Below are positions 561-59,764 of a stretch of 64,000 nt of DNA, piece by piece (position 1 is the first letter of the stretch; each line of letters opens with the position of its first letter). The position numbers and the translations under genes were made by a program. The notes under the pieces are model-generated. The model searched no databases. It saw only the letters and a list, made by a program, of their open reading frames with translations, and was not told where the DNA came from. The stretch spans positions 88,769 through 152,768 of the forward strand of contig JBBDRJ010000018.1 in NCBI GenBank assembly GCA_040905525.1, read 5' to 3'. The DNA comes from Actinomycetota bacterium. Its GTDB lineage: Bacteria; Actinomycetota; JAICYB01.

Positions 561-1696
561 GGCGGTGATGGCGGTGGAGTGAGATGTAGACCACCGACGT
601 CTTCCGGATGAGTCTCTTCCCCGCCGTCGAGCAAAAGACGCAGAAGCCGGAATCCTTCGTGCGCCGCATCGATCTCGCGCGAGATCGTGTCGGGCACAGC
701 CGGTTCGGCATCCAGGCTGAGGCGGATCGTTTCCGTCAATGCCTCAGGGCCGAGTCGCTTCGACACGCATGGCTGACGAAGACGTCGTGACAATCCGATG
801 AGCTTGGCTTCGTGGCCGTACGAGACGAATGGCGTCCCGGCGGTCGATGCGGCGATGAGCGCGTGATAACGGAACGACACAACGAGCCGGCAGGCCGCGA
901 AGGTGTCCCGGGCCTGCTTCAGGTCGCGCGGCGGCGGAAGGAGCTCGACCCCCAATGAAGCCTGCAGCTCTCTAGCCAGATGCGTGTCACCGGGCGAAGT
1001 TCGACCGTTCTGCCACGGCTGAAGCTTGATCTCGACGCCCTCGGATACAAGAGGGCGAAGGGCGGCAGTGATGCGAGCCGTTAGGGTTCCGTCGTCCGCC
1101 AGGTGACTGAGGGCGACGATCACCTCGTCGCGGCGCTGCGCAGAGATCCGATGCGGTGGCTGAAACCTCGGCTCTCCTTCTAGATCGAAGAGCGCCCATG
1201 CAGGATCGGCTCCGATACGGAAGGGCGGACGAACGCCGGCCTCGGCGAGTAGAACCGCGGACTCTTCGTCTCGCAGTACCAGCAGACCCGAGCGGTGCGC
1301 GAAGGCGCGCGCGAGGATGTCCGCGTATGCGTTGTCGAGCTTCCCGGCGCCTACTCCGAGCATCGCAACCGACTTGCCCATCGCGCGAGCACCGGCAGCC
1401 AGGACGAGGCCCTTGCGCAGCAGATCGTTCGCCGATCGCCCCGCTGAGGGATGAAGCGTTTTGAAGATCGTGCCGCCGGCGAACACGACGGCATCGGCGC
1501 GGACCGCCTGCAAAGCTACGTCTTTGGGGTCGCTCGACGAAACCGCGTCGCAACCGCGGCAGGCGCGGGTGTCGGCGGGGTCGCTCGACGTCGCGACCGC
1601 ACGCCACCCATCGAGGTGGCGCAGGAACGCTTCGAGGAGCGCTTCGTCGCCGGGGTTATGCTGCCCGAACGCGCCTACGAGCAAGACTGTCGGCAT
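557..1696 (-). CDS. Polysaccharide pyruvyl transferase family protein
   Basis: ORF 557..1789; from internal Met MPTVLLVGAFGQHNPGDEALLEAF...VVFAGGTIF...FRYHALIAA resembles CsaB/WcaK-type pyruvyl transferases; start set at 1696. Confidence 0.65.
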   Translation of the reverse strand: MPTVLLVGAFGQHNPGDEALLEAFLRHLDGWRAVATSSDPADTRACRGCDAVSSSDPKDVALQAVRADAVVFAGGTIFKTLHPSAGRSANDLLRKGLVLAAGARAMGKSVAMLGVGAGKLDNAYADILARAFAHRSGLLVLRDEESAVLLAEAGVRPPFRIGADPAWALFDLEGEPRFQPPHRISAQRRDEVIVALSHLADDGTLTARITAALRPLVSEGVEIKLQPWQNGRTSPGDTHLARELQASLGVELLPPPRDLKQARDTFAACRLVVSFRYHALIAASTAGTPFVSYGHEAKLIGLSRRLRQPCVSKRLGPEALTETIRLSLDAEPAVPDTISREIDAAHEGFRLLRLLLDGGEETHPEDVGGLHLTPPPSPP

Positions 1697-2858
1697 GCAG
1701 CACCTCCTCGTAAAGATCGAGGTGTGCCCGGGCTGACTCCGCCCACGTTCTTCCGGCACGCAGCGTTTCGCTACTGTGGCGGATGGCATCCAGTCGAACC
1801 GGATCGTTCAGGATGTCGTTCAGCGCGCGCGCTAACCCGTCGGGATCCAGCGGCACGCGCAGATCTTTCGGTGCTTCTATGCAGTCGCCCACAGCGGGCG
1901 ACACCACAACGGGAGTTTCGAAGCCCAGGGCTAGCGCGAGCGCGCCGCTCGATGAGAATGGATCCGGATACGGGAACAGCGCGATGTCAGCGGCGGAGAA
2001 CCAGCGCGCAACATCTCTCTCGGAGACGTAGCCCGTGAACCGGGCAACGTCGCCGAACTGCGAAATTAGCTCCGCCAAGTAGCCGCGCTTGGGGTTTCTG
2101 CGGGCAAGGCGCGGATGCTCACCCCCGGCCACGACGAGCCGGAAAGCGCCCGATCGGCGGGACGCTTCCAGGGCCGCTTCGAGGCCCTTGTACGGCGCGA
2201 CGAAACCGAAGCACAACACCGTCGGAATCGAGCCGAGGCCCAATTCACTTCGGACCGTGCTTCGGTTGACGCGCTCGAGTAGTTCGATCCCATGCGGGAT
2301 CACGGCCGCATCGGGAAAATTCCGGGTGAACGACGCCTCATGGACGACCACCGCGTCGGCGAAACGACGTATCGCACCCTGCACCGAAGCGATGCCGGTG
2401 CGGGCCAGGAAGCTCGGCGATCGCACGCGGTGCATGCGGACGAAATTGCGGTCGACTGCACCCGGGTCGACAACCTGGTGCGGTGTTACGACAACGCGAC
2501 GCCCGGCGCGGCGAAGGGCGGCGAGCGCCGGGACCAGGCAGGCGAGCGAAAGGGCTCCGCCGTAGAGAAAGAGCTCGAACTGGACGTGTACTACTGGCGC
2601 GTTCGTGGACCTGGCTGCCGCGACCGCGTCGATGAGCGCGGTTGGGCCCCGACGGAAGCACCGCCGCACCGTCACCGACCCGTCGCTGGACGTTGCCGGC
2701 TCGTCCGGCTCATGAGCACAGACCACATCCACATTTGCGCCGGCGCCGGCCAGCGCGTGCGCCAGGTTCGCCGTGTAGGACGCCACACCGCTGAGTCCGG
2801 CGTGGCGCTTACCAGCTGGTGGGTACAGCGACACGATCGCGATGTCGGTATTCGGCAT
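1656..2858 (-). CDS. Glycosyltransferase family 4 (GT1/GT4 fold)
   Basis: 400 aa ORF; N-terminal MPNTDIAIVSLYPP...GVASYTANLAHALAGAGANVDVV and C-terminal GT4-like region (FPYPDPFSSSGALALALGFETPVV). Confidence 0.8.
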   Translation of the reverse strand: MPNTDIAIVSLYPPAGKRHAGLSGVASYTANLAHALAGAGANVDVVCAHEPDEPATSSDGSVTVRRCFRRGPTALIDAVAAARSTNAPVVHVQFELFLYGGALSLACLVPALAALRRAGRRVVVTPHQVVDPGAVDRNFVRMHRVRSPSFLARTGIASVQGAIRRFADAVVVHEASFTRNFPDAAVIPHGIELLERVNRSTVRSELGLGSIPTVLCFGFVAPYKGLEAALEASRRSGAFRLVVAGGEHPRLARRNPKRGYLAELISQFGDVARFTGYVSERDVARWFSAADIALFPYPDPFSSSGALALALGFETPVVVSPAVGDCIEAPKDLRVPLDPDGLARALNDILNDPVRLDAIRHSSETLRAGRTWAESARAHLDLYEEVLHADSLARRRVRAA

Positions 2859-2872
2859 CTAGAACAGCGGCT

Positions 2873-3643
2873 CTAAGACGCGGCGCGGGAGGGAACGAGG
2901 GTCGGGACGCGCTCGCTGGTTTCGATCGTGTCGTCGTCGGGCAAGGGGATCGTTTTGTGGTGAAGCCACAGGCGCAGCGCGGAGACCGCCATCTTCTTGG
3001 CATCGGCCGCGGCGTTCACGTGACTGCCATCGCGGTCGATCCAGATGGTCGGCACCTCGACGATCGTGAAGCCCAAACGTCGCGCCGTGACGAGCACGTC
3101 CACGTCGAAGAGGAAGTCACGTGAAGAGAGCAACGGAGTGATCCGTCGAACGAGATCGTAGGAAAGTACCTTCGCCCCGCACTGCGTATCGGTGTACGGG
3201 AGTCCGAAGAGGTTGCGGACGACGAGTGAGAAGCCGACGCTCGTCAACCGCCGGCTCATCGACCGTCGATTCGGCAGCACGGCCGCGGGATGGTAACGAG
3301 TCGCTATGGCGCCGTCGGCCGTTTCGGCCGCCTCGACGAGCCGGAGGAATTCCGCCGGCGGTGTCGCGCAGTCTGCGTCGACGAAGCCGATGAGATCGGC
3401 CTCACAGACACGGAACGCCTCCATGAGCACGCCGCCCTTCCCGAGCTTGGGGAACTGCAGGAGGCCGACCCGGTGGTCGGCCGACATATGGCGGCGCACC
3501 ACGTCGATCGTTCGATCCGTGCATCGGTCGAGCGCAACGATGAAGCGGGTGTCGGGCGACGTGCATCTGGCCCGGTACGCACGAAGTGTGCGACCGATCC
3601 GCTTCTCCTCGTTGTGGGCGGGGATCACGACATCTAGTCGCAC
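2873..3643 (-). CDS. Glycosyltransferase family 2
   Basis: 256 aa; LDVVIPAHNEEKRIGRTLRAY...FVDADCATPP... typical GT2 (DPM1-like) motifs. Confidence 0.8.
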   Translation of the reverse strand: MRLDVVIPAHNEEKRIGRTLRAYRARCTSPDTRFIVALDRCTDRTIDVVRRHMSADHRVGLLQFPKLGKGGVLMEAFRVCEADLIGFVDADCATPPAEFLRLVEAAETADGAIATRYHPAAVLPNRRSMSRRLTSVGFSLVVRNLFGLPYTDTQCGAKVLSYDLVRRITPLLSSRDFLFDVDVLVTARRLGFTIVEVPTIWIDRDGSHVNAAADAKKMAVSALRLWLHHKTIPLPDDDTIETSERVPTLVPSRAAS

Positions 3644-6098: not shown

Positions 6099-7133
6099 TC
6101 AGTTGCTGAGCTGGTCGAACGTGCACTCCTCCGGCTTCTTGTCGTCACGCCAGCGGACGAATCCGGCCGCGTGCCGGAACCGCTGGCCGGATTGCACGTA
6201 GTCGTAGGTGACCTCGCACACCAGCGTCGGTTCGATCGATGTCCACTCGTATTCCTTACCGCCCGTCCAGCGGCTCTGAGCTCCGGGCCCCCACTCTTCC
6301 GGCGCCCCGAACCCGGCGCCGCTTACGTTGTGCAGCGGCTCCAGGATCTTGACCAGTTCTTTGCGCTCCTTAGCGCTGAACGACGCGGTGTGGCCGATGT
6401 AGCGCAGGTTCCCATCGTCGTACAACCCCAGTAGCAGCGATCCGACGCCACCGTGCTTGTGCGGGCGGTACCCGCCCACGACGCAGTCGGCCGTGCGCTT
6501 GTGTTTGATCTTGATCATCACCCGGTCGCCGGGCGAATAAGGAAGTGTCAGCTTCTTCGCGACGATACCGTCGCATTTCACCTTCTCCAGCTCGACGAAC
6601 CAGTCCTGCGCGACGTCGGCATCGTCCGTGCAGGGTGTGAGATGGAACGTCGGACCGGGCAACGTCGCCGGTGCGCCGGGTTCCTTGGGACGCTTCTTAC
6701 CGAAGACTCCCGTCAGGACGCGCAGCCGTTCGGCGAGCGGTTCGTCACACAGGTTCTTGTCGGTGCCGAGGATGTCGAACACGACGAAGCTGGCCGGGGT
6801 CTCGCCGGCCAGCTTGTTCACGCGCGACGCGGCCGGGTGAAGCCGCGCCTGCAAAGCGTCGAAGTCGAGCCCGGAATCCGACGGCAGGATGATCTCGCCA
6901 TCGACGACGCATGGATCGGGCAATGCGTCACGCAACAGCTCCTCGACCTCGGGGAAGTACCGATTAAGGGGACGGCCGTTACGACTGTCGATCTGTACGA
7001 GATCGCCATCACGGAAGACGATCGCTCGGAAGCCGTCCCACTTCGGTTCGTAGATCCACTCGTCGCCGCGTGGGACCTCGTCTTTGCCCTTGGCGAGCAT
7101 CGGCTTCACGGGAGGCTTAACGGGTAGTGACAT
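6099..7133 (-). CDS. ligC: ATP-dependent DNA ligase (LigC-like, ligase domain only)
   Basis: 344 aa; adenylation motif I KWDGFR (KxDG), overall ATP-dependent ligase core with no appended polymerase or nuclease domain. Confidence 0.75.
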   Translation of the reverse strand: MSLPVKPPVKPMLAKGKDEVPRGDEWIYEPKWDGFRAIVFRDGDLVQIDSRNGRPLNRYFPEVEELLRDALPDPCVVDGEIILPSDSGLDFDALQARLHPAASRVNKLAGETPASFVVFDILGTDKNLCDEPLAERLRVLTGVFGKKRPKEPGAPATLPGPTFHLTPCTDDADVAQDWFVELEKVKCDGIVAKKLTLPYSPGDRVMIKIKHKRTADCVVGGYRPHKHGGVGSLLLGLYDDGNLRYIGHTASFSAKERKELVKILEPLHNVSGAGFGAPEEWGPGAQSRWTGGKEYEWTSIEPTLVCEVTYDYVQSGQRFRHAAGFVRWRDDKKPEECTFDQLSN

Positions 7134-7167
7134 ACTCCGATGGTCTCAGGTCTTCGGGGGAGGCGTC

Positions 7168-9383: not shown

Positions 9384-9581
9384 CGCGTGACTGAAGACTG
9401 ATCACAAGGAGTCGCTACGCTCCATCCTGAGAGTCGGCCCTGCAACGTAATATTCGTTCTGCTCGACAGCCTCAATCGCCATGTCCTGGACGCCTACGGG
9501 GACGGCAGCGAGTTCGACACGCCCAACCTCGACCGCTTCGCGAAGGGCGCGATCAAGTTCGAGAACCACTACTCCGGCGCG

Positions 9582-10982
9582 TTGCCCTGCATGCCTGCGC
9601 GGCACGACCTGCTATGTGGTGCATGGGACTTTCCATGGAAGCCGTGGGGCTCGATAGAGATCTGGGAGGAGCCGCTCACCGAGGCGCTTCGACGCGAAGG
9701 TGTGTGCACGAAGCTTGTCAGTGATCACCCGCACCTGTTCGAGAGCGGCGGCGAGAACTATCACGTGGGCTTCTCCGCGTGGGACTACCAGCGTGGGCAC
9801 GAAGGCGACCCCTGGCGCACGCGCCCCGACGCGTCGTGGCTCGGCGCGCCGTCGTTCGGTCGCGGCTGGCTGCCCTACGACACCTCCCGCGGCTGGTTCC
9901 GAAGCGAGGAGAACTTCCCCGGCCCCCGGACGATGACCGCGGCCGCGCGCTGGCTCGACGAAGAGGCGCAGGCGAGCTCGGGCCGGGACTCGATGGACGG
10001 CCTGCCCGAACATGCCGACCGTTACGAGCGCTTCCTGCTCTTCGTCGACGAGTTCGACCCGCATGAGCCTTTCGACACACCCGAGCCGTACGCCTCGATG
10101 TACGACGAGGCTTGGGAAGGACCGCACCTCATCTGGCCGCCGTACATACGCGGCGCGCAGGAGCGGGGCGTGCTCACGTCCGAACAGGCACGCCAGGTGC
10201 GCGCCCAGTACGGCGGCAAGCTCACGATGATCGACGCATGGTTCGGCCGGATGCTCGACGCAATCGACAACAACGAGTACTGGGACGACACGGCGGTAAT
10301 CGTGACGACAGACCACGGGCACTACCTGGGCGAGAAGGACGCGTGGGGGAAGCCGCCCATCCCGATCTACGAGACGATGGGACACATCCCCTTGCTCGTC
10401 CGCTGGCCGGGAGCCGAGCCGCGAACCATCAACGCCCTGACGACATCAGTGGACATCGCAGCCACCATCGTCGACGTGTTCGGAGCGTCCTTCCGTCACC
10501 CGACGCACGGTCGTTCTCTGCTCCCGTTGATCACGGGGGAGTCGACGTCGGTTCGTGACTGGATGCTCTCGGGGATCTGGGGCCGCGAGATCCACCTGCT
10601 CTGGGAAGGAAAGAAGTACGCGCGAGCACCGGTGGGCGCCAACGTGCCGCAGAGCCTGTGGTCCAACCGCTGGTCGACTATGCCCGTTTGGCGTTTCGCG
10701 GATCTGAAGCTGCCGGTCCCCGACGACCGCGCGATCCTCGACCACATGCCGGGGTCGACGATCCCCGTTATCCGCCAACCCTTCCGGGAAGGGGACATGC
10801 TCCCCTTCTGGGCGTGGGGTCCCTTCGACGGCAACGAGCTCTACGACATCTCAAACGATCCGGGCGAGGACGCCGATCTCGCCGGTACACCGCTCGAGAA
10901 GGTGGCGGCCGACCTGCTCCACGACGCTCTGAAAGAGATCGAAGCTCCGAGCGATCACTATGTTCGGCTCGGCCTAGACTGA
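9582..10982 (+). CDS. Sulfatase family protein (formylglycine-dependent type)
   Basis: 466 aa from TTG; CMPAR (C-x-P-x-R) at the very N-terminus, TTDHGHYLGEKDAWGKP; conserved N-terminal region continues in frame upstream to about 9444 with no canonical start (see findings). Confidence 0.7.
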   Translation: MPCMPARHDLLCGAWDFPWKPWGSIEIWEEPLTEALRREGVCTKLVSDHPHLFESGGENYHVGFSAWDYQRGHEGDPWRTRPDASWLGAPSFGRGWLPYDTSRGWFRSEENFPGPRTMTAAARWLDEEAQASSGRDSMDGLPEHADRYERFLLFVDEFDPHEPFDTPEPYASMYDEAWEGPHLIWPPYIRGAQERGVLTSEQARQVRAQYGGKLTMIDAWFGRMLDAIDNNEYWDDTAVIVTTDHGHYLGEKDAWGKPPIPIYETMGHIPLLVRWPGAEPRTINALTTSVDIAATIVDVFGASFRHPTHGRSLLPLITGESTSVRDWMLSGIWGREIHLLWEGKKYARAPVGANVPQSLWSNRWSTMPVWRFADLKLPVPDDRAILDHMPGSTIPVIRQPFREGDMLPFWAWGPFDGNELYDISNDPGEDADLAGTPLEKVAADLLHDALKEIEAPSDHYVRLGLD

Positions 10983-35163: not shown

Positions 35164-36765
35164 ATGGCCGGGAGCATCCCCGCCTCTTCGCCTGCCTTTT
35201 CGCCCGCCTTTTCGCCCGCCTTTTCCAATGAGCCGTTCGCCGATCTTCGATCCGCGGAGGTTCGCGAAAAGTTCGGTGCTGCAGTATCGGCCGCCGCCCG
35301 CTCTGCCGCATTCGAGGCTCCGCTGATCATCGCCGGCGAACGCTTAGCCACCCAAGGAAGGATCGACTCGGTCGATCCTTCCGATCCGGGGCGCGTCGTT
35401 TGTCGGTCGGGGAGGGCCGGCCGGGCCGAGGTAGATCGCGCGGTCGAGGCCGCGGCCCGCGCGCAGGGCGCGTGGGCCGCCACCTCGCCGCGCTATCGGG
35501 CCGACGTGGTTCTTCGGGCGGCCGCGATCATGCGCGAGAAGCGATGTGAGCTGGCCGGCCTCGAAGTGATCGAGGCCGGCAAGCCGTGGACTCAGGCCGA
35601 CGCCGATGTATGCGAGGCGATCGACTTCTGCGAGTACTACGCGCGAGAGGTCTTGCTTTTGGCCGAAGGCGCGCCGGTGCTGCAAGCCCCCGGAGAGTCC
35701 AACTCCTACGGCTACCAGTCGCGGGGGATCGTCGCCGCGATAGCTCCCTGGAACTTCCCGCTAGCGATCCCATGCGGGATGGTGACGGCGGGATTGGTTT
35801 GCGGCAATGCGGTGATGCTTAAACCGGCGGAGCAGACACCGGGTGTTGGGCTGCGACTGATCGAGATCCTTCTCGAAGCGGGCGTGCCGTCCGGCGCTTT
35901 GGCCTTCCTGCCCGGAGTCGGAGAAGAAGCGGGTGCGGCTCTCGTCGATCACCCGCAGATCTCCGTCATCGCCTTCACGGGCTCGAAGGACGTCGGACTG
36001 CAGATCATCGAGCGTGCCGCGGTCACCGGACGAGGACAGCGTCACGTGAAGAAAGTGATCGCAGAGATGGGCGGCAAGAACGCGGTTGTCGTGGACGCCG
36101 ACGCGGACCTCGACTTGGCCGTACCGGCCATCGTCGACAGCGCGTTCGCGTACGCGGGCCAGAAGTGCTCGGCTGCTTCGCGCCTCATCGCCGTCGGCGA
36201 CGTCTACGACGCGGTCGTCGATCGGCTCGTGGAGGCGACTAGATCGGTGCGGGTCGGCCCCGCATCAGATCCCGAGACCGTGGTCGGACCGGTCATCGAC
36301 GAGATCGCCTTCCGGCGGATCGGCCGTTACCAGGAGATTGCTCGTGAAGAAGGCGAAGTTCTCGTTCAGCGCACCGACATCCCGGACACGGGTTGGTTCG
36401 TGGGGCCAACCGTGGCCGCCTGCGAAGATCCGGACGCACGCATCGCCACCGAAGAGATCTTCGGCCCCCTGATCGTCTGTTTGCGGGCGGACGACTTCGG
36501 GCGCGCGCTCGAGATCGCGAACTCCACCCCGTACGCACTCACCGGCGGCGTGTTCTCGCGTACGCCGGCGCATATCCGGCAGGCTTCCGAGCAGATGCGT
36601 GCGGGCAACATCTACATCAACCGGAAGATCACGGGAGCCCTGGTCGGACGCCAGCCCTTCGGCGGATACGGCTTGTCCGGTGTGGGCTCCAAGGCCGGTG
36701 GCCCCGACTACCTGCTGCAGTTCTGTGAGCCGCGTGTGATCACGGAGAACACGGCGCGGCCTTGA
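35164..36765 (+). CDS. pruA: L-glutamate gamma-semialdehyde (1-pyrroline-5-carboxylate) dehydrogenase, aldehyde dehydrogenase family
   Basis: 533 aa; ALDH motifs (EMGGKNA, catalytic-Cys region GQKCSAAS) and P5CDH-like C-terminus GGYGLSGVGSKAGGPDYLLQF; N-terminus carries a (PAFS)3 repeat. Confidence 0.7.
   Translation: MAGSIPASSPAFSPAFSPAFSNEPFADLRSAEVREKFGAAVSAAARSAAFEAPLIIAGERLATQGRIDSVDPSDPGRVVCRSGRAGRAEVDRAVEAAARAQGAWAATSPRYRADVVLRAAAIMREKRCELAGLEVIEAGKPWTQADADVCEAIDFCEYYAREVLLLAEGAPVLQAPGESNSYGYQSRGIVAAIAPWNFPLAIPCGMVTAGLVCGNAVMLKPAEQTPGVGLRLIEILLEAGVPSGALAFLPGVGEEAGAALVDHPQISVIAFTGSKDVGLQIIERAAVTGRGQRHVKKVIAEMGGKNAVVVDADADLDLAVPAIVDSAFAYAGQKCSAASRLIAVGDVYDAVVDRLVEATRSVRVGPASDPETVVGPVIDEIAFRRIGRYQEIAREEGEVLVQRTDIPDTGWFVGPTVAACEDPDARIATEEIFGPLIVCLRADDFGRALEIANSTPYALTGGVFSRTPAHIRQASEQMRAGNIYINRKITGALVGRQPFGGYGLSGVGSKAGGPDYLLQFCEPRVITENTARP
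35190..35225. repeat. 12-bp tandem direct repeat x3 (gcc[t/c]gccttttc)
   Basis: gcctgccttttc gcccgccttttc gcccgccttttc, preceded by a degenerate partial unit; in frame within the pruA 5' end, encoding PAFS-PAFS-PAFS. Confidence 0.7.
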
Positions 36766-38156
36766 CCGACACCACCATGCAAGACCGACAACGGGGCGCG
36801 ACTCGTGTAGCGATCTCGGCGCTCGCGTGGACGGCGTTGCTCGCCGGAGCCAAGACGACGGTGGGCGTGCTCACCGGATCCGTTGCCGTTCTGGGCGACG
36901 GTTTGCACTCGATCCTCGACGTCGTCGTCGCGGGGGTGACGCTTTTCGCCGTGAGGCTGTCGGGAAAGCCTCCCGATCGGGAGCACCCCTACGGGCACGG
37001 ACGCATCGAGAACCTCGCCGCGCTCGGCGAAGCCTTCGTCATGTTCATCGTCGGCGCCGGCGTGGGGGCCGAGGCCGTGCGCCGGATCGTGAACGATGCC
37101 GAGATAACGGCTCCGGTATACGCGATCGCCGTTACCGCGGCGGCGCTGGTCATCGGCGCGTGGCGCTCGCGCGTGCTTCGGCGCGCGGCCGCCCGTTTCT
37201 CCTCGCCCGCCCTGCAAGCCGATGCCCTCAACATGACGGCAGATGTCGGTGAGTCTCTTGCCGTTCTGATCGGACTCGGTGCATCGCGCCTTGGCTTCCC
37301 GGCCGGGGATCCCATCGCGGCCCTGGTCGTCGTGGCGACGATGTGGGTCATGGCGGGACGCATCGGATGGGCGGCGGTTAATGTCTTGATGGATCGGGTA
37401 CCGGCCGGTCTGCAGGAGCGCGTCGCGGCGGCCGCCCGTGGCGTGAGCGGCGTCGCGGGCGTCGGCGATCTCCGCGTCCGGGAGTCGGGGCCGAACGTGC
37501 ATGCCGAGGTCAACATCAGCGTCGGCCGCACGGCGTCGGTCGAACGATCTCACGAGATCACCGAAGCCGTGGAGGCTGCCGTTGCGAGCGCTGTGCCCGG
37601 GGCCACGGCAACCGTGCACGTCGAGCCGAGCACACGAGGAGAAGACTTCGTCGCGCGCACCTTCGCAGCAGCGAATCGTCTCGGGCTGGCCGATCAGGTG
37701 CACAACGTGCTGGCCATCCGTCATCCGGAAGGGCTCTGGCTGATGCTGCACGCGAAGGTTCCGGCCTCCACGCCGCTGGCCGACGCGCATGCCATAACCG
37801 ACGAGCTCGAGCGCGAGATCCGCAAGGAGATACCGGCGCTCGCGCGGGTCGAGATCCACGTCGAACCGCACGAGCCACCCATGATGCGCGGGTCCGATGT
37901 AGGCACCGAGCGCGCGCGGCTGACCCGTGACGTTCAACGCGTCGCCGAGAGACACGATCCGATCACGCGGTGCCACGAGGTGGCCATCAGTGAGGCCGAG
38001 GATGGCCTGCACCTCGTTCTGCACTGCGAAGCGCCTGGAGGCACGACGATCGGCGAGATTCACGACGCGTCACTGTGGATCGAGGACGAGATCCACCGTC
38101 GCTACGACGAAGTGCGCAGCATTACCGTGCATTTCGAGCCGCAGCGGTTATCGTGA
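36762..38156 (+). CDS. Cation diffusion facilitator (CDF) family transporter with tandem C-terminal cytoplasmic domains
   Basis: 464 aa from TTG 36762 (alternative ATG 36777); CDF TM core (HSILDVVV, HPYGHGRIEN) followed by two successive CTD-like segments. Confidence 0.7.
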   Translation: MTDTTMQDRQRGATRVAISALAWTALLAGAKTTVGVLTGSVAVLGDGLHSILDVVVAGVTLFAVRLSGKPPDREHPYGHGRIENLAALGEAFVMFIVGAGVGAEAVRRIVNDAEITAPVYAIAVTAAALVIGAWRSRVLRRAAARFSSPALQADALNMTADVGESLAVLIGLGASRLGFPAGDPIAALVVVATMWVMAGRIGWAAVNVLMDRVPAGLQERVAAAARGVSGVAGVGDLRVRESGPNVHAEVNISVGRTASVERSHEITEAVEAAVASAVPGATATVHVEPSTRGEDFVARTFAAANRLGLADQVHNVLAIRHPEGLWLMLHAKVPASTPLADAHAITDELEREIRKEIPALARVEIHVEPHEPPMMRGSDVGTERARLTRDVQRVAERHDPITRCHEVAISEAEDGLHLVLHCEAPGGTTIGEIHDASLWIEDEIHRRYDEVRSITVHFEPQRLS

Positions 38157-51367: not shown

Positions 51368-51370
51368 GTC

Positions 51371-52258
51371 ATGGATGTCCGCATCACGCATCCCGACAAG
51401 GTCCTGTTTCCACGGGACGGCTATACCAAGGCCGACGTCGTCGGCTACTACGTTGAGGTCTCCGACGCGATGCTGCCGTTCATGCGTAACCATCCGCTGG
51501 CCATGCTCCGGTTCAACGACGGCATCGACCGCGAAAGGTTCTTCCACAAGCGCACGCCGAAGTACTTTCCGTCTTACATCGACCGCGTGCAGATAACGAT
51601 CGGCGACGAGAAGGTGAACTACTCGGTCTGCAACAACCTCGAGGCGCTGGCCTACATCGCAAACCACAACTCCATCGAGCTCCATCTACTGACCGTCCGT
51701 GCCGACGACCTGGAGCACCCCGACAGGATGGTCTTCGACCTGGACCCGTCTATCGATGACTTCGAGATGGTGCGCGAAGCGACGCGCTGGTTGCACGAGC
51801 TTCTCGATGAGGTGGGCCTGCCCGCTTTCCTCATGACGAGCGGATCGCGCGGGCTGCACACCTGGGTCCCCCTGGACCGCAAGTCCGACACCGAGGAGGT
51901 CCACTCCTTCGCCGGCGAAGTCGCGAGAGTTCTCGTCGATCGCCATCCGGAAGTCCTCACCACCGAGTTCGCCAAGGCCGATCGCGGATCGAGGATCTAT
52001 TTCGACGTCGCGCGCAACGCGCCGGGGCAGCACGCGGTCGCTCCGTACTCCCTGCGGGCGAAAGACGGCGCTCCGGTCGCCACTCCGATCACGTGGGACG
52101 AGCTGGACGATCCCAAGCTCACCCCGCAGCGCTGGACTATGAAGACGGTGACCGGGCGCATCGGCGACGATCCCTGGGCGGGCATGGCCAAGAAGGCTCG
52201 ATCACTCAGCCGCGCTCGCAAAGCGCTCGACCGCTTGGCACGGCGGGGCTCTGTCTGA
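51371..52258 (+). CDS. Non-homologous end-joining DNA polymerase domain (LigD Pol/PrimPol-like, standalone)
   Basis: 295 aa; primase-polymerase motifs (MVFDLDP, SGSRGLHTWVPL); no fused ligase or nuclease domain. Confidence 0.75.
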   Translation: MDVRITHPDKVLFPRDGYTKADVVGYYVEVSDAMLPFMRNHPLAMLRFNDGIDRERFFHKRTPKYFPSYIDRVQITIGDEKVNYSVCNNLEALAYIANHNSIELHLLTVRADDLEHPDRMVFDLDPSIDDFEMVREATRWLHELLDEVGLPAFLMTSGSRGLHTWVPLDRKSDTEEVHSFAGEVARVLVDRHPEVLTTEFAKADRGSRIYFDVARNAPGQHAVAPYSLRAKDGAPVATPITWDELDDPKLTPQRWTMKTVTGRIGDDPWAGMAKKARSLSRARKALDRLARRGSV

Positions 52259-53180: not shown

Positions 53181-54140
53181 CTAGAGCTCGATCCCCAGCA
53201 TCGAGCCCAACGCCCGGCCGATCCCGAACGAGATCGCGGCCACGCCAGCGCCGAGTGCCAGCATGACGCCGAAGCGACGGCGGAACGACACGCCCTGCAT
53301 CACTGACGAGTAGTACGAGAAGGCCGCGATGATCAACACTGCGGCCGCCCACGAGATGAACAGCGCGGTGTGACGGTCGGACAGGAAGAAGAACGGCGCC
53401 ACGAGTCCTAAGACGACGAAGATGTAGGTCACGCCGGTGTAGGCGGCGGCCTTACTCGGTCTCAGGGCCGTCGCCTCGCCGATGTCGACGGACAGGAAGT
53501 TGGACGCCGCCATCGACATCGACGCAGCGATCCCGACTACCAGGCTGGCGAAGCCGATCAGCTTCGGGTCGGAGATCGACGAAACCAGGCCCGTCAGGCC
53601 CCCCGTGAGCTCGACCAGTGCGTCGTTCAGTCCAAGCACGGCGGCGCCGAGATAGGCGCGCCGTTCGTCCTTCACTCCCTGCTCGAGCGCCTGCTCGTGC
53701 TCCTCCTCCTCGCGAAGCATCCGCGCGACACCCTCGCGCTGATCGGGTTCGAGCGAGTCTTCCTCGAGCAACTGCCGGTAGGTCGCGATGGCTTTGTCCT
53801 CGCCGCGCTCGAGCCAGCGGATCGTGAAAGCCGGGCCCAGCAGTCTGCTCGACGCGACGAGCAGCAGATGTTTGAGGCGTGATGCACGCAAGCGTTCTTC
53901 GGGGATCTGGCAGACGTTCAGCCAGAACCTTACGTGTCCGTCCTCCTGTTCGGCGAGCTGGTTGAGCATGGAGCGGCTCTTGGGATCGGGTGCTCGCTCC
54001 GCGAGGGCCCGATAGATGCGGCACGCGAAAAGTTCCTCGGTTGCCTGCTGCCGAGCCACGTGCTGCAGATCGCTCGCCACGATTGCAAGTCTCTCATGCG
54101 CGCCGAATGTGCCACATATGTGATAGACGCTTGTACACAT
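53181..54140 (-). CDS. Ferritin-like domain / VIT1-CCC1 family iron transporter fusion (MbfA-like)
   Basis: ORF 53181..54191 (start uncertain, set to internal Met); N-terminal ferritin-like helices with E...E..H motifs, C-terminal VIT1-like TM domain. Confidence 0.65.
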   Translation of the reverse strand: MCTSVYHICGTFGAHERLAIVASDLQHVARQQATEELFACRIYRALAERAPDPKSRSMLNQLAEQEDGHVRFWLNVCQIPEERLRASRLKHLLLVASSRLLGPAFTIRWLERGEDKAIATYRQLLEEDSLEPDQREGVARMLREEEEHEQALEQGVKDERRAYLGAAVLGLNDALVELTGGLTGLVSSISDPKLIGFASLVVGIAASMSMAASNFLSVDIGEATALRPSKAAAYTGVTYIFVVLGLVAPFFFLSDRHTALFISWAAAVLIIAAFSYYSSVMQGVSFRRRFGVMLALGAGVAAISFGIGRALGSMLGIEL

Positions 54141-54993
54141 GAACACCGATCTACTTCTGAAGGACGCCGAGGCGACGCTGGTCGCCGTCAACGAACGGTT
54201 CGGCTGGCAAGGCGACGAGGACGATCAGGCGTGGGACATCCTCACCCACGTTTTGCGACGCCAACCCGATCCCGACGAGGACCTGCCACTCGACGTCGCT
54301 TATCGATTCGACGAGCTCGTGAAGAGGCGGGCGACGGGGGAGCCGCTCGCGTTCATCCTCGGCTGGGTCGAGTTCCTCGACTTCAAGATGGCGATCGAAC
54401 CCGGGGCGTTCATCCCTCGGCTGACCAGCGAGTTCCTCGCCAAGCAGGCGATCCGCCGGCTGCGAAAAAGAGCGAAGCCGATCCACATCGACCTGGCCTG
54501 CGGGATCGGACCCGTGGCCATCGGCTCGGCTCGGGCCGTTCCCAAGGCGAAGGTTTTCGGGGTCGACATCTCCAAGAAGGCGGTCAGGCAGGCTCAGGCC
54601 AATGCGACGAAGCTCGGTGCCGGCAACGCGACGTTCCTAAAGGGCGACATGTTCTCGCCGCTGCCCGAAGAGCTGCGCGGCAAGGTCGACGTCATATCCA
54701 TCCACCCTCCTTACGTACCCAAGGCTGAGGTGGCCGACCTGCCGGAAGAGATCAAGGAGTACGAGCCCGCGCACACCCTCACCGACGCATCGTTGGACGG
54801 ACTGGGGCTGACGCGCCGGGTGATCTCGGAGGGCCGGGAGTGGCTGGGGCCCAAGGGCTGGGTGCTCATCGAGATCGTCCCGACGGAGTCCATCCTGGTT
54901 CGCAGGATGTTCCGCGAGCACGGCTACTTGGAGGTGCGCAGCACACATGGTGAGCTCAAGCTGACGCGGGTCATCTGCGGACGGATGCCATAG
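54139..54993 (+). CDS. Class I SAM-dependent methyltransferase, HemK/PrmC-like
   Basis: 284 aa; SAM motif DLACGIGPVAI, HPPY (NPPY-like) motif IHPPYVP. Confidence 0.6.
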   Translation: MNTDLLLKDAEATLVAVNERFGWQGDEDDQAWDILTHVLRRQPDPDEDLPLDVAYRFDELVKRRATGEPLAFILGWVEFLDFKMAIEPGAFIPRLTSEFLAKQAIRRLRKRAKPIHIDLACGIGPVAIGSARAVPKAKVFGVDISKKAVRQAQANATKLGAGNATFLKGDMFSPLPEELRGKVDVISIHPPYVPKAEVADLPEEIKEYEPAHTLTDASLDGLGLTRRVISEGREWLGPKGWVLIEIVPTESILVRRMFREHGYLEVRSTHGELKLTRVICGRMP

Positions 54994-55019
54994 CCGAAGA
55001 CCTTCGCGCCGACGCAGTC

Positions 55020-56519
55020 GTGGTCGGCGCTGGACACAACTCGCTTGTTGCAGCCGCCTACCTCGCCAGGGCTGGCCTGAATGTTGTCGTCTGCGAGCGT
55101 CGCGACGTTCCCGGCGGTGCAACGGTCACCGAGGAGATCGCTCCGGGCTTTCGTGCATCGACGGCGAGCTACGCACTGTCGCTGCTTCGACCCGACGTCT
55201 ATGCCGACCTCGATCTCGCGCGTCACGGGCTGAAAGCCGTCCCGAAAGATCCGCAGATGTTCGTGCCTCTTCCGGACGGCCGTTCGTTCTTCGTGTGGCG
55301 CGACCTCGAGCGCACGATCGCCGAGCTCGAGCGCATCCATCCCGGCGACGGCGAGGCCTACCGTTTTTGGTCTGCTTTTTGGGAGGACGTTGTGCGCATC
55401 ATGCGGCCCGTTCTCGATTCGGCCGATCCGGTCGACATCGAGCGGTATCTCGGCTCCCTGGGCAAGCCCGATATCTACAGGTGGTGTGTCCGCGGCAGCG
55501 CATCCGACATCGTCGAGCGGTTCTTCTCGGCCCCGGAGGTGCAAGGTGCGTTCGCATCTCAAGGCATCGTCGGTACGTGGGCGAGCGTTAGGGATCCGGG
55601 AACGGCGTGGGTGATGACAAAGCACGCGCTCGGCGGCGATATCTACGGCTCGTCCGGCACATGGGGGTTCGCGATCGGCGGCATGGGAGCGGTGAGTGGA
55701 GCGATCGCGTCGGCCGCACACGAGGCCGGAGCCGACATCCGTTGCGATGCGAGCGTCACAGACATCCTCGTCGACGGGGGTCGAGCGGCCGGTGTTCGTC
55801 TGAGCGACGGGACCGTCGTTCGAGCCACCGCGGTGCTCTCGGGTGCCGATCCAAAGGCCACGTTCTTGCGCTTGTGTCCGTCCGGCTCACTCGACCCCGA
55901 CTTCGGCGAGCGCGTCTCTTCCTGGCGGACGCCGGGGTGCGTGCTGAAAGTGAATCTGGCTCTCAGCGAGCTCCCCGATTTCATAGCGGCACCGGGAGCA
56001 GGACCCCAGCACCACGGGACGGTGGAGATCTCACCGTCGCTCGACTACCTCCACGACGCGCACGATGACGCCCTCAACGGCCGTCCGTCGGCCAGGCCGT
56101 GGATGGAGGTGTTCGTTGCCTCGGCCGTCGACCCGACCCTCGTGGACGGCGACGGCCACGTCGTTTCAGCTTTCACGCAATACGTTCCGCCGGTTGCCGA
56201 CGATTGGGTCGCCATGCGTGAGAAGGCGGTGGGCAATGTGATCGACACGCTCGCGTCGTATGCGCCGAATGTGCCGGGAGCGATCGTCGCGTGCGAAGCG
56301 CTCGGCCCCCCCGAGCTGGAGGCGCGATTCGGCCTGGCGGGCGGCAACATCTTCCACGGCGAGATCCTGCCGGAGCAGTCGTTCGACAAGCGCTTCGATT
56401 ACCGCACACCGGTTGACGGCCTCTACCTTTGTGGCTCCGGTGCGCGGCCCGGTGGTTGCGTCACCGGAGCGGCGGGTCGCAACGCCGCGCGAACGGTGCT
56501 AGCCGACTTGGGGAGGTAA
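55020..56519 (+). CDS. FAD-dependent oxidoreductase, phytoene desaturase (CrtI) family
   Basis: 499 aa from GTG; dinucleotide-binding GAGHNSLVAAAYLARAG; conserved N-terminal strand appears to continue upstream without a canonical start (see findings). Confidence 0.7.
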   Translation: MVGAGHNSLVAAAYLARAGLNVVVCERRDVPGGATVTEEIAPGFRASTASYALSLLRPDVYADLDLARHGLKAVPKDPQMFVPLPDGRSFFVWRDLERTIAELERIHPGDGEAYRFWSAFWEDVVRIMRPVLDSADPVDIERYLGSLGKPDIYRWCVRGSASDIVERFFSAPEVQGAFASQGIVGTWASVRDPGTAWVMTKHALGGDIYGSSGTWGFAIGGMGAVSGAIASAAHEAGADIRCDASVTDILVDGGRAAGVRLSDGTVVRATAVLSGADPKATFLRLCPSGSLDPDFGERVSSWRTPGCVLKVNLALSELPDFIAAPGAGPQHHGTVEISPSLDYLHDAHDDALNGRPSARPWMEVFVASAVDPTLVDGDGHVVSAFTQYVPPVADDWVAMREKAVGNVIDTLASYAPNVPGAIVACEALGPPELEARFGLAGGNIFHGEILPEQSFDKRFDYRTPVDGLYLCGSGARPGGCVTGAAGRNAARTVLADLGR

Positions 56520-56522
56520 GGC

Positions 56523-57293
56523 ATGTGCTACGAGACGACGGCGCGACCGCCGGCCCCGCCCATCCAGGGTGGTGCGGCGACGGGGGAGTCGATAACGCTT
56601 AAAGCCTCGGACGGAAACGAGTTCGCCGCCTTCAGCGCGAAGGCGGCCGATGCGGGCGGCCCGGGGATTGTCGTGCTTCCCGACGTCCGCGGCTTGCACG
56701 CTTTCTACGAGGATCTTGCGCTTAGATTCGCCGAGCAGGGAGTGCATGCCGCGGCGTTCGACTACTTCGGACGAACGGCGGGCGTTGGGCGCCGATCCGA
56801 CGATTTCGATTTCTGGCCCGAGGTCATGAAGACCAAGCCGGACACCGTTGCCCTTGACGTGGCCGCATCGGTCGATCACCTGCGGTCCCCAGCCGGCGGC
56901 GGCGCCACGTCGATCTTCACCGTCGGCTTCTGCTTCGGCGGCGGGAACTCCTTCAATCAAGCCGCGCGCGGGCACGGGCTGTCGGGAGTTGTCGGCTTCT
57001 ACGGACGCGTAGTGCCGCGTGACGAGAGCGACTCGGACGCACCCATCGACAAGGCAGAGCGTTTCGAGTGCCCGGTGCTCGGGCTATTCGGCGGCACCGA
57101 CCAGATGATCACAGCGGACGGCATCGAAGCCTTCGGCAAAGCTCTGGACGCCGCCGGTGTGGCCAAGGAGCTCAAGATCTACGACGGAGCGCCGCACTCG
57201 TTCTTCGACCGCGCCTTCGATCAGTTCAAAGCCGAATGCGACGACGCGTGGACGCGGATCCTGGGGTTCATAGAAGCCAACAGCAGCCGTTAG
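56523..57293 (+). CDS. Dienelactone hydrolase family protein
   Basis: 256 aa; alpha/beta fold with nucleophile region GFCFGG. Confidence 0.75.
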   Translation: MCYETTARPPAPPIQGGAATGESITLKASDGNEFAAFSAKAADAGGPGIVVLPDVRGLHAFYEDLALRFAEQGVHAAAFDYFGRTAGVGRRSDDFDFWPEVMKTKPDTVALDVAASVDHLRSPAGGGATSIFTVGFCFGGGNSFNQAARGHGLSGVVGFYGRVVPRDESDSDAPIDKAERFECPVLGLFGGTDQMITADGIEAFGKALDAAGVAKELKIYDGAPHSFFDRAFDQFKAECDDAWTRILGFIEANSSR

Positions 57294-58300
57294 CCGGTTC
57301 GCGCGACTAGTCCGAAGAGCGACTCCCGCGGCACCAGACGCCGCGGTCGCTCGACGCTGAATCCGTTCCTGTCGAATAGCCCGACGGTTTCGTCGAGTGT
57401 GGGCAGGGCGGTGTTTCCTTGTGTATTTCGGAGAACGTTGTCGAAGTGTGTGGCGATTCGCGATCGGCCCTGGACGTAGCTGACAACGACGACCGAACCA
57501 CCCGGCGCAAGAAGCTCGCGAAGAATGAATATCAGCTTCGTGCGCTGAGCATCCTCGAAGTAGTACAGGTTGTGAAAGAGAGTGATCATCTCGAAGAGTC
57601 CACCGAGTTCATGCGGCGGATCGAGGATGTTGGCTGTGACAACCCGCACGCCGCTGATGCCCCACTCCTTCAGATTTCGAACGGCCAGATCGGTTGCCGC
57701 TTCGTGCATGTCGACACCGACCGCTTGGACGTCCGACAGGGCTTTGGCCGCGCAGCGCAGGTAGATGCCGGAGCCGCACCCGATGTCGAGGAGAGATGCG
57801 GGACGCGAGTCCTTCAAGCAGCGATCAAGGAAAGCAAGGGTTGGGGCCTCGAGGATCCGCGACGACCTGGCAACGATGTCTCCGGTCTCGTCGAGGTAGT
57901 TGCCGAGAGGCGCACCCCGAAGTCTGTCGCGGACGGTTCCGTACGCCGCGCCGTGATAGCTGAAACACTCTTGGATCTGAGCGAAGTATGCGTCGCCGAT
58001 GTCGCTGACGAGAGCCCGTGCCCGCCGTCCTCGAAGACGATATCGACCATCCTTGATTGCGATCTCGCGCCACGCGATGCCCTCAGCCAATAAGCCATCG
58101 AGCAACTCGGTTCTCGTTACGCCGAGGTCTGTGACGAGCTCTTTTCGCGTGCGTGGTGTGCGGAGCGCGTGTAGCAAGCCGCTGTCAGTCGCTCCGAGAA
58201 GGAACAACGCGCGCGAGGCCGGGTACAGATCGAGCATTACAAACGTTCGGCCGATCAGGTGGCCTCCTCTGATGAAGCGTCTCAGCGCTTGGAGCCACAT
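57290..58300 (-). CDS. Class I SAM-dependent methyltransferase (O-methyltransferase-like)
   Basis: ORF 57290..58819; start moved to Met at 58300 (MWLQALRRF...); SAM motif LLDIGCGSGIY preceded by a dimerisation/winged-helix-like region. Confidence 0.7.
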   Translation of the reverse strand: MWLQALRRFIRGGHLIGRTFVMLDLYPASRALFLLGATDSGLLHALRTPRTRKELVTDLGVTRTELLDGLLAEGIAWREIAIKDGRYRLRGRRARALVSDIGDAYFAQIQECFSYHGAAYGTVRDRLRGAPLGNYLDETGDIVARSSRILEAPTLAFLDRCLKDSRPASLLDIGCGSGIYLRCAAKALSDVQAVGVDMHEAATDLAVRNLKEWGISGVRVVTANILDPPHELGGLFEMITLFHNLYYFEDAQRTKLIFILRELLAPGGSVVVVSYVQGRSRIATHFDNVLRNTQGNTALPTLDETVGLFDRNGFSVERPRRLVPRESLFGLVARTG

Positions 58301-58345
58301 GAGGCAAGGGTACGCTGGGGGCCGATCAGGGAATCGAGGTATTTG

Positions 58346-59764
58346 ATGCGCTCCTTCCTCGTTGGTGGTCGGCATGAGACGGGCACCGACTCTCGTGCAG
58401 TGCGCAATCCGTACTCCGGCGAGCCTGTCGATGAGGTCGCCGTTGCGTCGTGGGACGACGTGGATCATGCCCTTAGCGTGGCGACCGACGTCTTCGAGTC
58501 GACGCGTAGGCAGAGCGCCTTCGATCGTTCGAAGGTGCTTCTGGCCGCCGCCGGCGCGATCCGCATGCGCGCGGAAGAGCTGACCCGACTGATCGTGGCC
58601 GAGGGAGGTAAGCCCTACAAGAACGCGAAGGTCGAGGTCGCCCGCGCTGCTTCGACGTTGACGTGGGCGGGTGAGGAGGCCAAGCGATACACCGGCGAGC
58701 TCGTCCGCCTCGACACCGAGGAGACGGCGCGCGGACGTCTCGGCCTGGTGCGGCGCTTCCCACTGGGAGTCGTGCTCGGGATCGCGCCGTTCAACTTCCC
58801 TCTCAACCTCGTTTGTCACAAGGTGGGACCCGCGTTGGCCGTAGGCAATCCGATCGTCGTGAAGCCTGCGTCGTCCACGCCGCTAACTGCCATCGCATTG
58901 GGCGAGATCCTCGTGGAAGCGGGAGCCGGCGAAGCTGTCTCGGTGATCACGTGCACGCCGGAGGACGCCGAGCGGGCGGCGCAGGACGATCGGGTAGCGA
59001 AGATCTCGTTCACAGGTTCGACGGACGTCGGTTGGAAGCTGAAGGGACTGGTGCCGCGCAAGAAGGTCACGTTGGAGCTCGGCGGGAACGCGGCGGTCAT
59101 CATCGAGCCCGACGCCGACCTCGGTCATGCCGCCGAGCGCGTGGCTTACGGCGGCTTCTATCAAGCCGGGCAGTCGTGCATCTCCGTGCAGCGCGTGCTC
59201 GTGCACGAGGCGATCGCGGAAACCTTCTGCTCCAGGCTCGCGCCCTTGGTCGAGGCGCTTGTGGTCGGCGACCCGGCGAACGAGGACACCGATGTGGGTC
59301 CGTTGATCGACGAAGCGGCACTCGATCGGGTCGATGCCTGGGTGAAGGAGGCCCTGGATGCGGGCGCGCGCGCGCTGTGCGGCGCGAAGCGAGAAGACCC
59401 GTGCTACCTGCCGACCGTCCTCACCGACGTTCGTGAGGACATGAAGGTCTCGTGCATGGAGGTGTTCGGCCCGGTCGTGACCGTTCAGCCGTACAGGACT
59501 TTCGACGACGCACTACGGATGGCCAACGACTCCGATTACGGGTTGCAGGGTGGTGTTTTCACCAACGACATCGAGAAGGTCTTTCGCGCGCAGCGCGAAT
59601 GGCGCGTAGGTGGCCTTATCCACAACGACGTATCGGCCTTCCGGGCCGATCAGATGCCCTACGGCGGCGTGAAAGCGTCTGGCTACGGCCGCGAAGGACT
59701 TCGCTACGCGATGGACGAGATGTCCGAGACGCGGATCCTGGTGTTGTCCGGTCTGGATCTCTAG
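58346..59764 (+). CDS. Aldehyde dehydrogenase family protein
   Basis: ORF 58259..59764; start ATG 58346 after GAGG; ALDH motifs ELGGNAA and catalytic-Cys region GQSCIS. Confidence 0.85.
   Translation: MRSFLVGGRHETGTDSRAVRNPYSGEPVDEVAVASWDDVDHALSVATDVFESTRRQSAFDRSKVLLAAAGAIRMRAEELTRLIVAEGGKPYKNAKVEVARAASTLTWAGEEAKRYTGELVRLDTEETARGRLGLVRRFPLGVVLGIAPFNFPLNLVCHKVGPALAVGNPIVVKPASSTPLTAIALGEILVEAGAGEAVSVITCTPEDAERAAQDDRVAKISFTGSTDVGWKLKGLVPRKKVTLELGGNAAVIIEPDADLGHAAERVAYGGFYQAGQSCISVQRVLVHEAIAETFCSRLAPLVEALVVGDPANEDTDVGPLIDEAALDRVDAWVKEALDAGARALCGAKREDPCYLPTVLTDVREDMKVSCMEVFGPVVTVQPYRTFDDALRMANDSDYGLQGGVFTNDIEKVFRAQREWRVGGLIHNDVSAFRADQMPYGGVKASGYGREGLRYAMDEMSETRILVLSGLDL

Follow-up and report, generated by a model that had tools for sequence, protein, structure and literature searches.

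Where does translation begin in a gene whose only canonical start codon falls within the first strand of its dinucleotide-binding fold? The question is raised by the gene of a CrtI-like NAD(P)/FAD-dependent oxidoreductase in a 64,000-nt stretch of Actinomycetota bacterium DNA (assembly GCA_040905525.1, contig JBBDRJ010000018.1, positions 88,769 to 152,768; hereafter the window, G+C ∼65%). GenBank (MEX0874410.1) and Prodigal both give a product of 499 aa from GTG 55020. Comparison with related loci places the start best at ATA 54990, 10 codons further upstream, which gives a coding sequence (CDS) of 54990-56519 and a protein of 509 aa; we put the probability of this placement at roughly 80%. 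The features on which the argument turns are the following.

54951-54953, plus strand: in-frame TGA, the upstream bound of the oxidoreductase open frame
54990-54992, plus strand: ATA, proposed oxidoreductase initiation codon (ATA/ATC conserved in 10 of 10 lineages)
54990-56519, plus strand: revised CDS of the CrtI-like NAD(P)/FAD-dependent oxidoreductase, 509 codons plus TAA (full-length alignment to CrtI, 4dgk)
55011-55040, plus strand: β1 strand and dinucleotide-binding loop, D-A-V-V-V-G-A-G-H-N (profile and 4dgk alignments)
55020-55022, plus strand: GTG, annotated start, most likely an internal Val codon (ATC/GTC in 8 of 10 lineages; no Shine-Dalgarno (SD) sequence)

The annotated start truncates the dinucleotide-binding fold

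An earlier reading of this DNA, made from the letters alone (the sequence-only reading), had stated that the oxidoreductase frame is open from 54954, that GTG 55020 is its only canonical start, one residue before the GxGxxG loop, and that a β1 strand is encoded upstream of that codon. All three statements hold. The TGA at 54951-54953 closes the frame on its 5' side and the frame is open from 54954 onward, where it reads AQADAGHLRTDAIAEDLRADAVVVGAGHNSL. The sole ATG, GTG or TTG before the GxGxxG loop is GTG 55020, yielding M-V-G-A-G-H-N. Asp 55011, three codons 5' of the GTG, is position 1 of the Pfam DAO, FAD_binding_2, and Pyr_redox_2 alignments, Ala 55014 is position 1 of the NCBIfam crtI_fam alignment, and in the CrtI structure (PDB ID: 4dgk) it is residue 5 that aligns to the first Val of VVVG. 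No ATG, GTG or TTG gives a protein with this conserved N-terminal element, as GTG 55020 cuts β1. Because the β1 strand is translated, initiation must be non-canonical, at ATA or CTG. The sequence-only reading had named ATA 54990 and CTG 54975 as the only possible initiators; both are present, and the frame also holds a third near-cognate codon, ACG 54981, that it left unlisted.

Related lineages keep an isoleucine codon at the position of canonical starts

We assembled a comparison set of 160 homologous loci from genome and metagenome collections, and obtained the DNA of nine short-called relatives. A canonical start lies 7 to 25 codons 5' of the GxGHN motif in ∼150 of the 160 loci. Many of the closest database proteins are called at 476 to 489 residues, beginning past the GxGxxG helix and losing their FAD-binding Pfam matches; at least 16 of the 120 closest (among P0002-P0087) are called 10 to 45 residues short, and most of these lack both the GxGxxG motif and precomputed FAD/NAD-binding Pfam matches.

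Ten lineages, namely the window together with L001, L002, L161-L163, and L167-L170, were compared at the DNA level. All ten carry an in-frame ATA (eight lineages) or ATC (two lineages) at 12 to 13 codons before the first Gly of GxGHN, followed by a codon for Ala or Thr, and in eight of them there is no ATG, GTG or TTG from the upstream in-frame stop to the GxGHN motif. The lineages are well diverged, with 65 to 87% amino-acid identity and differences at 35 to 66% of four-fold degenerate sites. In the 29 codons for β1, the loop, and the first helix, 12 first, 8 second, and 26 third codon positions vary, and G-x-G-H-N and A-A-Y-L-A-R-x-G are invariant. The third-position bias of this variation and the invariant G-x-G-H-N show that the ten lineages all translate the region ahead of the callers' starts, a region that in most of them precedes every canonical start.

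This evidence bears on two other explanations. The first is that GTG 55020 is the true start (MEX0874410.1, 499 aa), so that the protein begins M-V-G-A-G-H-N with a β1 of two residues. It is the only canonical start and the choice of both PGAP and Prodigal, and more distant homologs are called in the same manner (P0065, MVVIGAGHN, and P0098, MIGAGHN). However, eight of the 10 close lineages have ATC or GTC at the matching codon, which is thus not conserved as a start, and in those eight the next canonical start is past the GxGxxG helix and would delete a motif that is under purifying selection. SD pairing is absent upstream of the GTG (+0.4 kcal/mol), and the FAD profiles and the CrtI structure need the residues that precede it. 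We consider initiation at GTG 55020 highly improbable. Three homologs (P0003, P0065, and P0098) are nominally called from the loop itself, the arrangement that the sequence-only reading held would speak against it; the short call of P0003, which belongs to L001, is a gene-caller artifact arising from the same ATA problem. P0065 and P0098 may be mis-called starts too.

The second explanation is that the gene is an untranslated pseudogene with a lost start, or that the ATA is an assembly error. Either would account for the missing canonical start, and for nothing else. The frame of ∼509 codons is intact in the ten lineages and varies with a third-position bias, a cross-lineage conservation that effectively refutes a pseudogene, and we rate this explanation as extremely improbable. 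Assembly error was considered and rejected: a Logan assembly has the identical 499-aa product, and ATA or ATC recurs in independent samples, assemblies, and lineages.

To place the isoleucine codon with respect to canonical starts, we used a neighbor-joining tree, in which the ATA/ATC sequences are interleaved with orthologs whose called Met or Val stands 12 to 13 residues before the motif (for example P0008, P0016, P0018, and P0019). On this placement, the Ile codon is positionally homologous to the canonical starts, and the clade alternates ATG/GTG with ATA/ATC. As judged from the alignments, the N-terminal region is translated, there is no usable canonical start, and ATA or ATC occupies the position of the relatives' ATG or GTG. 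The non-canonical initiation that the sequence-only reading had proposed for this gene is thus supported, and the comparison favors ATA 54990 over CTG 54975 and GTG 55020.

The proposed start overlaps the stop of a PrmC-like methyltransferase gene

The gene directly 5' of the oxidoreductase encodes a homolog of the PrmC/HemK-family N5-glutamine methyltransferases, which scores 147 bits against NCBIfam hemK_fam (cut-off 115.5). Its features at the junction are as follows.

54139-54993, plus strand: PrmC/HemK-family N5-glutamine methyltransferase homolog, 284 aa (Pfam MTS, PrmC_N, Methyltransf_31)
54975-54977, plus strand: CTG, rival near-cognate initiator, conserved, formed in the -1 frame of the methyltransferase I-C-G codons
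54979-54985, plus strand: weak SD-like GGACGGA in the methyltransferase tail, 4 nt before the ATA
54991-54993, plus strand: TAG stop of the methyltransferase, sharing bases with the ATA as a 4-nt ATAG junction, 54990-54993

The final codons of the methyltransferase are ...ATC TGC GGA CGG ATG CCA TAG, and the final base of the Pro codon and the first two of the stop together form the overlapping ATA. Every related locus for which a gene map was obtained has a PrmC-like gene directly 5' of the oxidoreductase gene, and the pair is co-directional, with a 4-nt overlap, and conserved across genomes. A CCA-TAG or CCA-TAA junction is present in six lineages (the window, L163, and L167-L170), where the methyltransferase ends ...TGC GGA (C/A)GG NTG CCA TAG or TAA. 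The remaining four (L001, L002, L161, and L162) have the methyltransferase stop 8 to 14 nt upstream and still keep the ATA or ATC.

Two patterns of codon usage bear on what is being conserved. The final Pro codon is CCA in six of the six overlapping junctions, yet CCA makes up 5.7% of the Pro codons in 28 window genes, and synonymous sites near the conserved CCA vary among the overlapping lineages. Likewise, ATA accounts for 6.7% of Ile codons, yet it is kept in L001 and L002, which are free of the overlap constraint. The conserved CCA and the retention of ATA/ATC without overlap point to selection on the initiator itself, including the A of the ATA.

Initiation at CTG 54975 would add M-R-T-D-A before the Ile. 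CTG is a rare bacterial start recognized in Table 11, and an in-frame CTG is found at -17/-18 in the lineages with overlapping junctions and farther upstream (to -27) in the others. The codon is conserved because it overlaps the I-C-G codons of the methyltransferase (ATC TGC GG). In L162 the open frame is cut to 17 codons by an in-frame TAA that comes after the conserved CTG and before the domain; the CTG is therefore excluded as the initiator there and is not a general solution. Its SD pairing is also weaker (-3.8 kcal/mol), and the sister orthologs start at -12/-13 and not at -17. We regard initiation at CTG as very unlikely.

A further explanation is that a programmed -1 frameshift from the methyltransferase supplies the N-terminus, the oxidoreductase being made as a fusion protein. 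The oxidoreductase is indeed encoded in the -1 frame of the methyltransferase, with 13 codons of overlap between them, and in L162 (Ga0533587_0059946, ∼2843-2855) the methyltransferase ends CCT AAA AAG TAG, a near-classic -1 slippery run that would lead into the frame of the oxidoreductase. However, the -1 frame of L162 opens just three codons before the stop, and in relatives the two genes are separate and have normal starts. The slippery run of L162 recurs in none of the other lineages and is therefore probably incidental. We hold this explanation to be extremely improbable. A search of the overlap for an X XXY YYZ heptamer gave none in the window or in the other lineages, T AAA AAG of L162 standing alone, and the frameshift fusion was rejected.

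The junctions of relatives bear on the origin of the ATA. For P0008, a sister of L167, an ATGA overlap is implied by the gene coordinates (641-1504 and 1501-3036) taken together with the Met start. The junction is TTGA in L081, TGATG in L083, and CTGA in L082, and L171 has a GTG start with an 11-nt overlap. The canonical NTGA form is not found at the window junction, which has a TAG stop and an ATA start, and among the relatives it is found in P0008 (implied) and L081. Most likely, the junction descends from an ATGA stop/start overlap. From this common overlap, a single G-to-A change would have produced ATAA, and later ATAG, with the product of the upstream gene unchanged.

L082 (Ga0299907_10000085, ∼2975-2981) is a 66%-identical ortholog with 52 open codons and no canonical start among them. 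Its in-frame CTG overlaps the methyltransferase TGA (CTGA) 17 codons before GxGHN, apparently a near-cognate form of this junction that arose independently.

Ribosome-binding signals and a proposed mechanism

We calculated SD duplex energies with a generic anti-SD sequence for the candidate starts, and obtained -5.7 kcal/mol for the ATA, -3.8 kcal/mol for CTG 54975, and +0.4 kcal/mol for GTG 55020, against a background mean of -3.7 kcal/mol. Across the lineages the energies range from -4.3 to -6.9 kcal/mol, a modest margin over the same background mean. The SD-like sequences of relatives are GGAAGG (5-nt spacer) or AGGA (6-nt spacer), and in the overlapping lineages the element is built partly from the rare codons GGA and AGG. 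SD strength weakly favors the ATA, whose pairing is the best among the candidates but by itself not significant. Folding of the junction RNA (54950-55040) showed nothing unusual with respect to shuffled sequences (z = -0.54), and Rfam and tRNA scans of the whole window gave no match.

Several observations weigh against the ATA assignment. In the six overlapping lineages the upstream stop fixes two of the three ATA bases, and independent evidence therefore comes only from the third base of CCA and from the four lineages without the overlap; the latter, whose stop is 8 to 14 nt upstream, indicate that an exact 4-nt overlap is dispensable. The SD-like signal of the ATA is weak, and about one quarter of random positions in the window reach -5.7 kcal/mol. 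The neighbor-joining tree comes from a fast distance method and carries no support values. For the window taken by itself, CTG 54975 is formally a candidate, and the evidence that assigns the start to ATA is sequence comparison throughout.

With the ATA as the start, we propose that AUA 54990 would be translated into a 509-residue protein, (f)Met-A-E-D-L-R-A-D-A-V-V-V-G-A-G-H-N..., in which β1 is intact. The ordinary initiator tRNA would pair with AUA with a third-position mismatch, and ribosomes terminating one nucleotide away would assist through termination-reinitiation coupling, as would the weak SD-like GGA(C/A)GG in the methyltransferase tail. The expected result would be a low level of expression tied to that of the upstream gene. 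Near-cognate initiation aided by termination-reinitiation coupling is the likely reading of this arrangement, one in which how the two genes are coupled, which residue stands at the N-terminus, and how much protein is made are all inferences.

A second gene in the window lacks a usable canonical start

The sequence-only reading had found the same anomaly in a sulfatase gene of the window, and had taken the two cases as a possible hint of non-canonical initiation throughout the organism. We therefore translated 52 window open reading frames (ORFs) from stop to stop and compared the start of each Pfam domain with the first canonical start. One other anomaly emerged among the 52, and it is indeed the sulfatase (9402-10982, plus strand); a third was not found. 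The open frame of the sulfatase begins at 9402, and residue 15 of that frame is where the alignment to the Pfam Sulfatase profile sets in; the earliest canonical starts, TTG 9582 and ATG 9591, are already within the C-x-P-x-R active-site motif (C-M-P-A-R).

Sulfatase relatives, among those listed (65 to 80% identity), have ATG or GTG starts 5 to 30 residues before the NV(V/I)F strand; the anomaly is species-specific, because these listed relatives all start canonically. L165 has a GTG start 3 nt past the stop of the upstream P450 gene, and L166 an ATG start. The window leader reads TAG CGC GTG ACT GAA GAC TGA TCA CAA GGA GTC GCT ACG, in which the P450 stop (TAG 9381) is followed by an in-frame GTG at 9387, the position of the L165 start, and by TGA 9399 at the fifth codon. 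A perfect SD sequence, AAGGAG (9406-9411), stands with a 5-nt spacer before an in-frame ACG at 9417 (-7.8 kcal/mol). In P0135 the N-terminal leader has the length of the stretch from GTG 9387 to the Asn, with a matching E-S-R-P.

Most likely, a nonsense change specific to this species arose close to the former start codon, and ACG 9417 would have taken over by reinitiation; alternatively, the TGA may be read through, or the gene may be an early-stage pseudogene. The PGAP model of the sulfatase (MEX0874454.1, 510 aa, MFVLLDS...) implies an ATA start at 9450-9452, which lies inside the first β strand and has no SD sequence (-2.7 kcal/mol). PGAP thus chose ATA for the sulfatase, but the canonical GTG over the conserved ATA for the oxidoreductase. 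The sulfatase leader RNA is less structured than its shuffled counterparts (z = +1.35).

Could both genes be symptoms of a start selection that is relaxed across the organism or its lineage, for instance through changes in IF3 or the initiator tRNA? In 64 kb, two ORFs of the 52 surveyed are without a usable canonical start, which is more than the rarity of annotated non-canonical starts in model genomes would suggest. However, the oxidoreductase start is inherited over a gene clade, and in those lineages the neighboring genes have normal called lengths; the sulfatase anomaly is confined to one species and could stem from a nonsense mutation close to a GTG that has been retained; and there is no third case among the window ORFs. 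We consider relaxed start selection unlikely, and the window of 64 kb, whose genes exclude IF3 and initiator tRNA, gave no sign of a genome-wide trait of this kind. On the evidence of the aligned loci, the ATA/ATC start of the oxidoreductase belongs to a gene clade, being present in at least nine other lineages, and not to the organism. The two anomalies share a common theme, a near-cognate codon near an upstream stop, and have separate histories. Hence the comparison of homolog N-termini that the sequence-only reading had called for did place ATA or ATC at the start position of sister genes, and lent no support to an organism-wide habit; the hint that it had drawn from two cases is not sustained.

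Family placement and gene neighborhood

The oxidoreductase aligns to CrtI over its full length (4dgk_A, E = 2.4e-11, query residues 10-500 on chain residues 5-482) and has Pfam matches to Amino_oxidase, DAO, and NAD_binding_8. It does not reach the curated cut-offs of crtI_fam (TIGR02734; 96.8 versus 238.1 bits) or CrtO (NF045689; 247.7 versus 1000). By these profile and structure matches, the protein is a CrtI-like flavoprotein at the level of fold and superfamily. It resembles CrtI and the phytoene desaturases (TIGR02734, 4dgk) in its full-length alignment, its N-terminal β-α-β unit with GxGxxG, and its short leader, and differs from them in falling under the curated cut-offs and in having no adjacent carotenoid genes; no carotenoid-biosynthesis neighborhood was found at the locus.

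The oxidoreductase gene is part of a cluster of five genes at 53181-59764 of the window, which encode a VIT1/rubrerythrin-like protein (minus strand), the PrmC-like methyltransferase, the CrtI-like oxidoreductase, a dienelactone hydrolase, and an aldehyde dehydrogenase. The same five-gene cluster is present at loci L161-L171, across many uncultured Actinomycetota. The pairing of a second, non-essential-looking PrmC paralog with a flavoprotein is curious.

Other observations in the window

Among 28 high-confidence window genes, 14 end in TAG, 11 in TGA, and 3 in TAA, making TAG the commonest stop. In actinobacterial genomes of 65% G+C, TGA is normally the dominant stop, and an excess of TAG is unusual. 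A cation-efflux (CDF) protein encoded at 36729-38153 (plus strand) has three separate ZT_dimer matches past its membrane domain, which suggests that the C-terminal domain is repeated. ATP-dependent DNA ligase domains are encoded at 6102-7145 (minus strand) and a LigD primase-polymerase domain at 51368-52255 (plus strand); they are separate genes ∼44 kb apart and not one LigD polypeptide.

Discussion

Near-cognate starts of the isoleucine type have precedents. In Escherichia coli, infC and pcnB have AUU start codons, and ATA, ATC, and ATT are listed as starts in NCBI Table 11. In E. coli reporters, AUA, AUC, AUU, and CUG initiate at ∼0.1 to 3% of the level of AUG, with AUA and AUC at about 1 to 3%, and an N-terminal Met was confirmed for AUC and ACG starts; in model genomes, ATG, GTG, and TTG together make up ∼99.95% of annotated starts (bioRxiv 10.1101/063800). 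Translation persists at a reduced level in Listeria rsbW mutants whose ATG start was changed to ATA (PMC13068326). A literature search for AUA and AUC starts in bacteria returned mostly reports on mitochondrial genomes.

The oxidoreductase shares with these genes (infC, pcnB, and the ATG-to-ATA/ATT rsbW variants of PMC13068326) an Ile-type codon with a third-position mismatch and the choice of start as a setting of expression. In contrast to them, its codon is conserved over diverged orthologs, exchanges with ATG or GTG in sisters, and is known here from sequence alone. No autoregulation of the kind that IF3 exerts on infC is evident for the oxidoreductase.

Four-nucleotide overlaps are known to couple translation via termination-reinitiation (PMC6728339, PMC12548453). 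The junction described here is like the coupled -4 nt NTGA pairs (PMC6728339, PMC10666635, PMC12548453) in being a co-directional, conserved gene pair with shared stop and start bases. It differs from them in its ATAG or ATAA overlap, which combines a TAR stop with a non-canonical start, and in that in four lineages the stop has moved 8 to 14 nt upstream with the ATA or ATC retained. Near-cognate starts are not addressed in the translational-coupling literature that we consulted.

We have also speculated that the weak AUA/AUC could be kept by selection as a fixed, low-gain coupling device whose output would depend on termination at the PrmC-like gene and possibly on IF3 activity, or that a related, lineage-wide relaxation of start discrimination could be at work, with the ACG or ATA of the sulfatase as its second symptom; this we regard as doubtful.

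The ATA start and its junction are a real and well-conserved new example of near-cognate initiation and of overlapping, coupled genes, and do not constitute a new kind of system. For annotation, the consequence is that gene callers limited to ATG, GTG, and TTG truncate the N-termini of this clade systematically in the databases, and expression of the GenBank model of the oxidoreductase would give a protein without its β1 strand. For the evolution of overlapping genes, the locus illustrates how a single mutation, silent in the upstream gene, can turn a 4-nt ATGA overlap into ATAA or ATAG, and suggests that a near-cognate start created in this way can be maintained across deep divergence while selection is detectable on an upstream synonymous site (CCA). 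As a natural and conserved AUA/AUC initiator, it would provide a test case for whether termination-reinitiation relaxes the stringency of start-codon selection.

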